This document shows, piece after piece, positions 54,688 through 56,201 of a DNA stretch of 64,000 nucleotides. The notes beneath the pieces are model-generated. The model saw only the letters and a list, made by a program, of their open reading frames with translations. It was not told the DNA's origin and ran no database searches. Origin of the DNA: Candidatus Bathyarchaeota archaeon (GTDB lineage: Archaea; Thermoproteota; Bathyarchaeia; 40CM-2-53-6; RBG-13-38-9); assembly GCA_963807605.1 (NCBI GenBank), contig CAWECG010000001.1:416001-480000 (forward strand), in the 5' to 3' direction. Each line of letters opens with the position of its first letter. Within the stretch, counting starts at the first letter, position 1. The translations under genes and the position numbers were made by a program.

Positions 54688-55989
54688 TCACAGACATTGA
54701 CCCTCAGTTTTCAGCGCTTCCTTCAAGATCTTTACGGCACAATATCCGGAGCACATTGAACACGTCTCGGGATTTTTCAGTCTGATTCTGTCGCGAATCT
54801 TCGCGGCTTTCTCTGGATCCAAGGCATTCTCCAGCTGACTTTCCCAATCAAGGTTCGCTCTAGCTTTTGCCATGGCCAAGTCACGAGCGGCCGCTTTTGA
54901 TCCAAGCTTTGCAATGTCGACTGCGTGTGCCGATATTTTGGTAGCCATAACACCTTCTTTAACATCTTCTAAAAGGGGCAAACCCAGATGCTCTGAAGGC
55001 GTCAGGTAACAAAGGAAGTCAGCTCCGGCGAGTCCTGCAAGGGCTCCACCGATAGCTCCAACGATGTGGTCGTATCCCGGTGCTATCTCAGTTCCAAGGG
55101 GACCTAGTACATAGAGAGGCGCCCCCTTGCATATCGACTTTGCAAGCAGAACATTTGATTCTATTTCGTTAAGCGGTAGATGCCCAGGTCCTTCAACTAT
55201 AGCTTGTACATTTGCAGTCCTGGCTCTTTCCACGAGTTCTCCTATTGTGAGCAACTCCTGAATTTGAGGCCAGTCGGTTGAATCGAAAATGCATCCTGGT
55301 CTAAGGCCATCGCCTAGGCTTAGTGCAAAGTCGTATTTTGCAGCCAATTCCAGAAGGTAGTCGTAGTTTGCGTACAAGGGATTTTCTTTATTATGATGCA
55401 GGATCCATGCGGCTAGAAAGGTGCCTCCGCGGCTGACAATTCCCATCAGGCGTGGGTGCTTTGCTATCCGTTTGACGATTTGTTGTGTTACCCCGCAATG
55501 GACTGTCATGAAGTCAACGCCATCTTTGGCGTGTTCTTCTATCGTGTTGAAGATGTCATCTTCGGTCATGTGTATAATTGAGCCCCTCTTCTCAGATGCT
55601 TCGATAGCGGTTTGATATATGGGGACGGTTCCAATTGGAACATTAACATTCCTAAGAATCGACCTTCGTATATCATTCAAGTTGCCGCTTGTGCTAAGAT
55701 CCATAATGGTGTCTGTGCCATACTTGACAGCGATCTTAGCCTTCTCGATTTCTAAATTGAGATCACATAAGTCAGGGCTTGTTCCTATGTTTGTGTTGAT
55801 TTTGGTGCGCAGCCCTTTTCCAATTCCAATTGGATGAACATTTTCGCGTTGATTATTTCTGGCTATGATTACGGTTCCTTCAGCTATTCGTTGACATATC
55901 GTTGAAGGCAGCTCATCTTCATCCTTGGCTACTGTACGCATTTCTTCTGTTATTTGTCCCTTCTTCGCAAATCCTATTTGGGTTGCCAA
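54688..55989 (-). CDS. thiC: Phosphomethylpyrimidine synthase
   Basis: KINTNIGTS, MDLST, GTVPIYQ, VSRGG, EGPGH, YDHI, CSMCSGYC. Confidence 0.97.
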   Translation of the reverse strand: MATQIGFAKKGQITEEMRTVAKDEDELPSTICQRIAEGTVIIARNNQRENVHPIGIGKGLRTKINTNIGTSPDLCDLNLEIEKAKIAVKYGTDTIMDLSTSGNLNDIRRSILRNVNVPIGTVPIYQTAIEASEKRGSIIHMTEDDIFNTIEEHAKDGVDFMTVHCGVTQQIVKRIAKHPRLMGIVSRGGTFLAAWILHHNKENPLYANYDYLLELAAKYDFALSLGDGLRPGCIFDSTDWPQIQELLTIGELVERARTANVQAIVEGPGHLPLNEIESNVLLAKSICKGAPLYVLGPLGTEIAPGYDHIVGAIGGALAGLAGADFLCYLTPSEHLGLPLLEDVKEGVMATKISAHAVDIAKLGSKAAARDLAMAKARANLDWESQLENALDPEKAAKIRDRIRLKNPETCSMCSGYCAVKILKEALKTEGQCL

Positions 55990-56064
55990 ATTGATTTATC
56001 GCTCCAACCCAAGAAAAGCCGAGTTAGATCTGAGTTAGAGTGCACCAAATCAGGAATTCGGTAC

Positions 56065-56156
56065 ACGCCCCCTCCGCCAGCATTATCTGAATGAGGTTCT
56101 AGGGTCGGCGGTTCACCAGACCGCCCTCTCAGCCGGCTAACCAGCTCCCCTGGCGC
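56065..56156 (-). ncRNA. TPP riboswitch aptamer in the thiC leader
   Basis: GCGCC-AGGGG..CTGAGAG..GACCCTAGAACCT..GATAATGCTGGCGGAGGG-GGCGT: CUGAGA, ACCC/GAACCU, UAAU and GCG.AGGG landmarks; P1 GCGCC/GGCGU. Confidence 0.9.
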
Positions 56157-56185
56157 TTGCTTGTCTGAAATCGACAATACTCCGG

Positions 56186-56201
56186 AATTTAAAGTCTTTT
56201 G
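56186..56201 (-). promoter_or_regulatory. BRE/TATA promoter for the riboswitch-thiC transcript
   Basis: CAAAAGAC TTTAAA about 30 nt upstream of the aptamer 5' end. Confidence 0.6.

Follow-up and report, generated by a model that had tools for sequence, protein, structure and literature searches.

TPP riboswitches are, to our knowledge, the only riboswitch class present in each of life's three domains. The thiM TPP riboswitch of E. coli, attributed to Winkler et al. in 2002, is said to be a translational OFF switch. TPP riboswitches were reportedly predicted in archaea, in Thermoplasmatales and others, by Rodionov et al. in 2002, and ThiR-type protein regulation of archaeal thiamine genes is likewise said to have been described by Rodionov et al. 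in 2017. The E. coli thiC TPP riboswitch exerts dual transcriptional and translational control with a regulatory pause (PMC5234074). For archaea, McCown et al. 2017 single out two classes, TPP and fluoride, as ‘sometimes present’, with counts for Euryarchaeota, Crenarchaeota, Korarchaeota and Thaumarchaeota in which Bathyarchaeia are not named (PMC5473149). The fluoride riboswitch of Thermococcus kodakarensis (Speed et al. 2018, cited after PMC8241225) was, according to a 2021 paper, the only natural archaeal riboswitch determined experimentally (PMC8241225). Our literature search found no paper describing riboswitches, TPP included, in Bathyarchaeia, and no account of the expression platform or signal transmission of any archaeal TPP riboswitch; bench tests of archaeal TPP riboswitches appear to number none to date.

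We analysed the thiC leader in a 64,000-nucleotide stretch of a Candidatus Bathyarchaeota genome (hereafter the window, whose numbering we use unless a contig is named); the leader and its gene lie on the (−) strand. Judged from its sequence, this leader is almost certainly a real TPP riboswitch controlling thiC, and it is an ordinary member of a family whose existence and archaeal presence were already known, with no new class of mechanism. With E. coli thiM it shares the aptamer class, control of a thiamine biosynthesis gene and the underlying logic, in which an anti-Shine-Dalgarno (anti-SD) segment masks the Shine-Dalgarno (SD) sequence with TPP present and is captured by aptamer sequence in its absence. 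Unlike thiM, the archaeal leader has a TATA/BRE promoter and an aptamer that starts a few nucleotides from the predicted transcription start; its competitor is a 25-bp interrupted helix that reaches beyond the P1 region and disrupts P1, P2, P3 and the CUGAGA core; its gene starts with UUG, with an SD-like GGAG unusually far away (16 nt); and the target of its sequestor varies among close relatives, being the SD here and the start codon in others. With the E. coli thiC riboswitch it has the regulated gene in common, and the archaeal U-rich region near the start could similarly serve pausing or termination, although a termination component in archaea would need oligo-U or FttA. Like the predicted archaeal TPP riboswitches, which are of the same family, precede thiamine transport or synthesis genes and are known from bioinformatics only, the leader is a computational assignment; with the T. 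kodakarensis fluoride riboswitch it shares being natural, archaeal and presumably translational, whereas the ligand class differs. Together with about ten covarying relatives, it provides an explicit, mutation-testable model consisting of an aptamer, an anti-aptamer helix and an initiation-site sequestor; it is a well-defined subject, backed by covariation, with which mechanistic work on archaeal TPP riboswitches could begin.

Aptamer, promoter and start site of thiC

The Rfam TPP model (RF00059) gave a full-length match (THI element) at 56053–56161 (−), scoring 61.8 bits against a gathering score of 54.3 (E 1e-9), and this match was the only one in the whole 2.65-Mb genome. The alignment spans model positions 1–105, is not truncated and contains all conserved cores, namely CUGAGA of J3-2 (56132–56127) and ACCU..AU..AAU..GGCG.AGGG of the pyrophosphate-sensor arm. 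P1 is formed by 56156–52 with 56069–65, and the minimum free energy (MFE) fold of the aptamer alone reproduces P1–P5. An element with these features would be expected to bind TPP. On the promoter side, a TATA-like box TTTAAAT (56193–56187) lies ~30 nt upstream of P1 and is adjoined on its upstream side by a BRE-like purine-rich AAAAGAC (56194–56200); the usual archaeal spacing between TATA box and transcription start places the predicted start near 56164–56160. Related thiC leaders carry CTTAAAT-type boxes 28–33 nt before a conserved CC(A/G)GGGG, and nearly all related aptamers have a CTTAAAT or TTATATA box at a similar distance, ~25–35 nt upstream.

The gene thiC (phosphomethylpyrimidine synthase, 433 aa; 54688–55989 (−)) begins 64 nt past the end of the RF00059 match on the same strand. 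Its product scores 626 bits with NF009895 (cut-off 410) and 620 bits with TIGR00190, above the cut-offs of both models and aligned from residue 2, and the BzaB model stays below its cut-off. An earlier reading of this DNA, made from the letters without database searches (the sequence-only reading), had proposed the TATA box, a complete TPP aptamer and thiC downstream, with the Rfam score as a check on the aptamer; all of these held, and similarly spaced TATA boxes in relatives extend the first. The start codon is UUG (55989–55987). Related thiC genes have UUG or AUG at the equivalent codon, with UUG in most Bathyarchaeia leaders, and genome-wide UUG opens 161 of 455 unambiguous starts (about a third) versus 207 for ATG. 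The best explanation most likely includes a monocistronic thiC mRNA with the riboswitch at its 5′ end. A small hairpin involving the UUG start (55991–86 with 55981–76) was considered and dropped, having energies of 0 to −7 kcal/mol and differing pairings across 30 relatives.

The putative SD is GGAG at 56005–56002. We located the 16S rRNA with the archaeal SSU model (RF01959) and found that its 3′ end reads GGAUCACCUCCU, a canonical anti-SD. In an unconditioned positional count over the 455 unambiguous starts, SD-like 4-mers peak 11–14 nt upstream, with 31–42 counts per position versus 6–9 in the control. The GGAG of thiC begins 16 nt upstream of UUG, compared with 13–17 nt in relatives, and so sits at the long end of the range; a following (C/U)GAU extends the complementarity to the 16S end imperfectly. 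Because this spacing exceeds the genome-wide peak, the role of GGAG as an SD is not certain, and we regard it, on sequence grounds, as likely but not settled.

Two predicted folds of the leader

Directly after P1, hairpin 1 (56040–56066; −13.4 kcal/mol) occurs in both folds described below. In it, GUACCGAAU (56064–56056) pairs with AUUUGGUGC (56050–42), and ViennaRNA extends the stem to 10–12 bp, with a core of 56064–55 and 56051–42 and a 12-bp extension reaching into the final two nucleotides of P1's 3′ strand. The platform continues with two copies of UCUAACUC, at 56039–56032 and 56028–56021 by direct reading of the sequence, both complementary to GGUUAG/GGUUGG-type sequence. Copy 1 is contained in the anti-SD segment CUCUAACUCAG (56030–56040), whose partner in the aptamer-folded state is the SD region. 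Copy 2, together with a pyrimidine/U tract CUUUUCUU (U4CU2; 56018–56011), makes up the anti-aptamer segment CUAAC-U-CGGC-U-UUUCUUGG-GUU (56006–56027), which is complementary to aptamer positions 56157–56137 and engaged in the unconstrained MFE structure. Last comes the 3′ arm of the sequestor, UUGGGUUGGAG (56002–56012), containing GGAG.

Folding the leader from the predicted transcription start (~56163, from TATA spacing) to +20 showed two mutually exclusive platform folds in the thermodynamic model. When the aptamer is enforced (−68.1 kcal/mol), hairpin 1 is accompanied by a 10-bp helix of CUCUAACUCA (56040–31) with UGGGUUGGAG (56011–02), and GGAG is buried. In the unconstrained MFE structure (−72.2 kcal/mol), an anti-aptamer helix forms and GGAG is unpaired. 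The anti-aptamer helix is interrupted and comprises 25 bp in five segments joining platform positions 56034–56006 to the aptamer 5′ half, 56157–56128: aptamer 56157–55 with platform 56008–06; aptamer CCAGGGGA (56153–46) with platform UUUCUUGG (56016–09); GCUG (56145–42) with CGGC (56021–18); GUUAG (56141–37) with CUAAC (56027–23); and CUGAG (56132–28) with CUCAG (56034–30). The platform strand thus pairs with P1-5′, P2-5′, P3 and CUGAG of the aptamer, disrupting P1, P2, P3 and the CUGAGA core. The existence of two exclusive folds also explains why there are two UCUAACUC copies, copy 1 acting as anti-SD and copy 2 as anti-aptamer strand.

Energies of both helices were compared with those of 1,000 dinucleotide shuffles. 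The SD duplex CUCUAACUCAG/UUGGGUUGGAG reaches −14.5 kcal/mol versus −7.2 ± 2.4 kcal/mol for a shuffled anti-SD (18 of 1,000 as low; z = −3.1), and the anti-aptamer duplex reaches −28.1 versus −20.1 ± 3.3 kcal/mol (14 of 1,000 as low). In the ensemble, the probability that GGAG is unpaired is 0.70 in the full leader versus 0.08 in the platform alone. The energy gap between the folds is 3–6 kcal/mol at 25–60 °C, in nearest-neighbour energies that ignore aptamer tertiary contacts and the growth temperature of the organism; binding of the ligand might reverse a difference of this size. As the transcript grows, the MFE structure is the aptamer until the 3′ end reaches ~56036, and the anti-aptamer fold wins once ~56012 has been transcribed, a late takeover that gives the ligand an interval in which to bind during transcription.

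Much of this platform had been anticipated. The sequence-only reading had described the hairpin of GUACCGAAU and AUUUGGUGC, the two UCUAACUC copies, a helix masking the SD and an alternative pairing of CUCAG with the aptamer CUGAG; hairpin and copies are present where proposed, the masking helix appears in the aptamer-enforced fold with an energy that exceeds shuffles, and the CUCAG:CUGAG pairing is found in the unconstrained MFE structure. As an account of the platform it nonetheless fell short, having overlooked the 25-bp anti-aptamer helix that is the main switching partner.

TPP aptamers and platform helices in relatives

Of 41 genomes from the same family or order, 31 gave RF00059 matches above the cut-off, and in these the aptamers precede genes for thiC, ThiT (PF09515), ThiW (PF09512) or an NCS1 permease (PF02133). 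TPP riboswitches are therefore common in this lineage, to which the earlier statement that archaeal ones are rare and reported mainly, as predictions, from Thermoplasmatales does not apply; the model set out here lies in a widespread sediment lineage in which such switches commonly precede thiC, thiT, thiW and NCS1-permease genes. An archaeal host is indicated by an AglB/STT3-type gene near the thiC leader, by a 16S rRNA that fits the archaeal SSU model and by promoters with TATA boxes; in species-representative genomes, the closest ThiC sequences (70–84% identity) nearly all carry the label Bathyarchaeia or Bathyarchaeota. Of 24 thiC loci in Bathyarchaeia genomes, at least 14 have a THI box, as do about half of the metagenomic thiC loci with enough upstream sequence, and 12 THI-box thiC leaders scored with Rfam reached 68–77 bits.

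Several further features of this distribution were seen. Two or three TPP aptamers per genome are present in several relatives (L005/L032/L017/L033 and others), before ThiT, ThiW and NCS1-permease genes, and genomes G005 and G011 each have two near-identical aptamer copies on a single contig, 2–7 kb from each other. The stretch preceding the gene lacks a THI box at about 40% of Bathyarchaeia thiC loci (upstream of 1501 in L044, L046, L047, L058, L060, L061, L063, L064, L080 and L087); some of these share another conserved upstream sequence, and a different regulator is possible there. A second platform type with a different competitor characterizes a set of thiC leaders that we call group B (L056:1440–1500; L049, L052, L057 and L161–L170). 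In this group a long hairpin (for example, GAAUAAGC.../...GCUUAUUC) ends ~3 nt before U4–U6, followed directly by GGAGG, an arrangement that looks terminator-like, and a further segment, CUUCUCUAAAC, shows complementarity to the 5′ strand of P1/P2.

For the platform type of the window, we aligned 11 thiC leaders (alignment A1): the leader itself, one from a same-genus genome and nine from Bathyarchaeia contigs whose ThiC is 80–87% identical and whose RF00059 scores are 68–77 bits each. Aptamer helices P2, P3, P3b, P4 and P5 are 94–100% paired across the 11 leaders and P1 81.5%, with compensatory changes in P2, P3b, P4 and P5; hairpin 1 is 87% paired with three compensatory pairs. In the main anti-aptamer helix, which has 20 pairs, pairing reaches 94%, against 30–52% for the whole structure in a slid control, and five of its pairs changed on both sides and seven on one side, counts that overstate the number of independent events because the A1 leaders are mutually related and represent roughly three or four independent lineages. 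These changes include A-U, G-C and G-U exchanges at the CC(A/G)GGGG position and matched changes of P3 loop and platform in L160 and L043. The alignment thus shows an anti-aptamer helix that is conserved and covaries at the level of sequence.

The sequestor behaves differently. The SD-sequestor of the window leader is only 60% paired across relatives and is kept only in this leader and its same-genus counterpart. In most relatives an AGUCRRA following hairpin 1 pairs with the start-codon region UUUGACU (85% paired versus 12–52% slid), with one-sided changes only. Covariation across related thiC leaders, which the sequence-only reading had put forward as a check, accordingly speaks for the anti-aptamer helix and not for the SD helix, which is genus-specific. 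Masking of a translation-initiation signal nevertheless recurs, since the start-codon sequestor of the relatives would act on the same process though its target differs, and an SD or start-codon sequestor was found in almost all A1 leaders. As read from these alignments, aptamer, hairpin 1 and anti-aptamer strand are kept, whereas the masked target varies, being the SD here and the start codon in relatives. Such a pattern may reflect a sequestor that turns over while the output, blocked initiation, stays constant, and it offers a case of platform turnover between close relatives, from SD to start-codon sequestration, while the anti-aptamer strand is kept.

The same-genus leader (L031:168–343 (−)) differs from the window leader by seven substitutions in the aptamer versus one in the platform. 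Six of the seven are C-to-U changes at paired positions that keep pairing by turning G-C into G-U, and CUGAGA has become UUGAGA; RF00059 scores this leader at 45 bits, below gathering. An independent contig from a metagenome, L123, carries the identical variant (upstream of 401). The substitution pattern fits selection for structure despite the 45 bits.

Two further analyses led to rejected candidates. When 400 genomes of the class were searched for the pattern of the anti-aptamer motif, about as many matches came up as with the reversed control; apart from the window leader and the same-genus leader, matches outside THI-box leaders were at chance only, and no leaders were gained. In L054, the full fold pairs a 5′ CUCCA with the SD; TATA spacing places this CUCCA probably upstream of the transcription start, and we treat the pairing as an artefact of the extracted range.

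Mechanism, alternatives and neighbouring elements

Taken as a whole statement, we think it probable on balance that the leader is a functional TPP riboswitch on the thiC mRNA, operating as a thiM-type translational OFF switch. In this mechanism the aptamer would be transcribed first and fold. With TPP bound, the aptamer would be held in its folded state while the platform folds locally: hairpin 1 would form, and the helix of CUCUAACUCA (56040–31) with UGGGUUGGAG (56011–02) would bury GGAG, so that no ThiC is made. When TPP is scarce, the later-made pyrimidine-rich strand 56034–56006 would invade the aptamer at 56157–56128 (P1-5′, P2-5′, P3 and the CUGAG core). The resulting anti-aptamer helix would consume both the anti-SD, in its 3′ part, and the SD-side arm, in its 5′ part; GGAG would then be single-stranded, and thiC would be translated. 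The regulated step would accordingly be translation initiation. A translational OFF switch had also been the proposal of the sequence-only reading, and it remains the best-supported one in the thermodynamic predictions, which contain both of the folds that it implies.

An alternative that we consider unlikely keeps the same aptamer and anti-aptamer helix but places the regulated step at transcription termination on the U-tract (56018–56011). TPP would leave the tract single-stranded for oligo-U termination or for aCPSF1/FttA, and without TPP it would be paired to the aptamer GGGGAG and read through, SD masking being secondary or additive. Archaeal termination uses oligo-U and FttA, and we know of no Rho in archaea. 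The direction would be right, in that the folds suggest that TPP exposes the tract and would turn the gene off. Every Bathyarchaeia thiC leader examined has a U-rich tract immediately before the SD, those of group B included, in which the tract comes after a long hairpin and looks terminator-like; in A1, the UUUUC core is invariant in 11 of 11 leaders, and three of its U residues are always G-U partners at positions where a C could pair too, hinting at a constraint beyond pairing. Yet the conservation of the tract is largely accounted for by G-U pairing with the invariant GGGGAG of the aptamer. The tract here is only U4CU2, and in the aptamer-enforced fold it lies in the sequestor loop with no stable stem abutting it. 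The helices that form upstream while the tract is being transcribed belong to the TPP-free state, the wrong polarity for an intrinsic terminator of bacterial type, and T5+ tracts are only weakly enriched downstream of open reading frames in this genome (7.5% versus 5.1% of random 60-mers), a difference that tells nothing of terminator usage. Of the earlier suggestion that the U-tract in the loop offers a termination mechanism, the position in the loop is confirmed; no hairpin lies right before the tract in the ligand-bound fold, as a terminator/antiterminator arrangement would have it, and the conservation has the explanation by pairing just given. A factor-dependent version, in which TPP would expose the invariant U-tract to aCPSF1/FttA or oligo-U termination on top of SD masking, would have the fitting polarity but strikes us as distinctly improbable. 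If true, exposure of the tract would be an archaeal counterpart of Rho-dependent riboswitch control and the first case described in archaea of transcription attenuation under ligand control.

We give little credence to the idea that the aptamer binds TPP but the platform works chiefly through mRNA stability or processing, for example by exposing single-stranded A/U-rich sites to an RNase in one of the two states, or that the anti-aptamer helix tunes ligand sensitivity while another regulator sets expression. Such readings draw on the strict conservation being limited to the anti-aptamer helix and on SD accessibility, whose predicted change is inconsistent among relatives and in several of them does not follow the expected direction. 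They fit poorly with the presence of an SD or start-codon sequestor in almost all A1 leaders, and we identified no specific cleavage motif. A second regulator of the ThiR type was likewise not detected: a PF10120 search of the 94%-complete genome found no stand-alone ThiN-domain (ThiR-like) gene, its single match (G000:C3:1030906–1031412, L229) falling in a 517-aa open frame that resembles a ThiD–ThiN fusion. This result fits a riboswitch as the regulator of thiC here. The same genome gave no match to Thi4 (TIGR00292) above the cut-off. That the leader is a decaying or non-functional aptamer relic with chance complementarities we regard as extremely improbable. The score of 61.8 bits is below the 68–77 bits of the relatives, and the same-genus copy, with its seven aptamer substitutions, falls to 45 bits; but the window aptamer exceeds the gathering score and has every conserved core in place, six of the seven same-genus substitutions keep pairing as G-U in a variant that recurs on an independent contig, both platform helices exceed shuffles, and the anti-aptamer helix covaries.

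A fluoride riboswitch (RF01734) was also found, at 2225–2301 (−), with 42.1 bits against a gathering score of 34; the next open reading frame (1613–2065 (−), 150 aa) has no Pfam match and is unlike CrcB.
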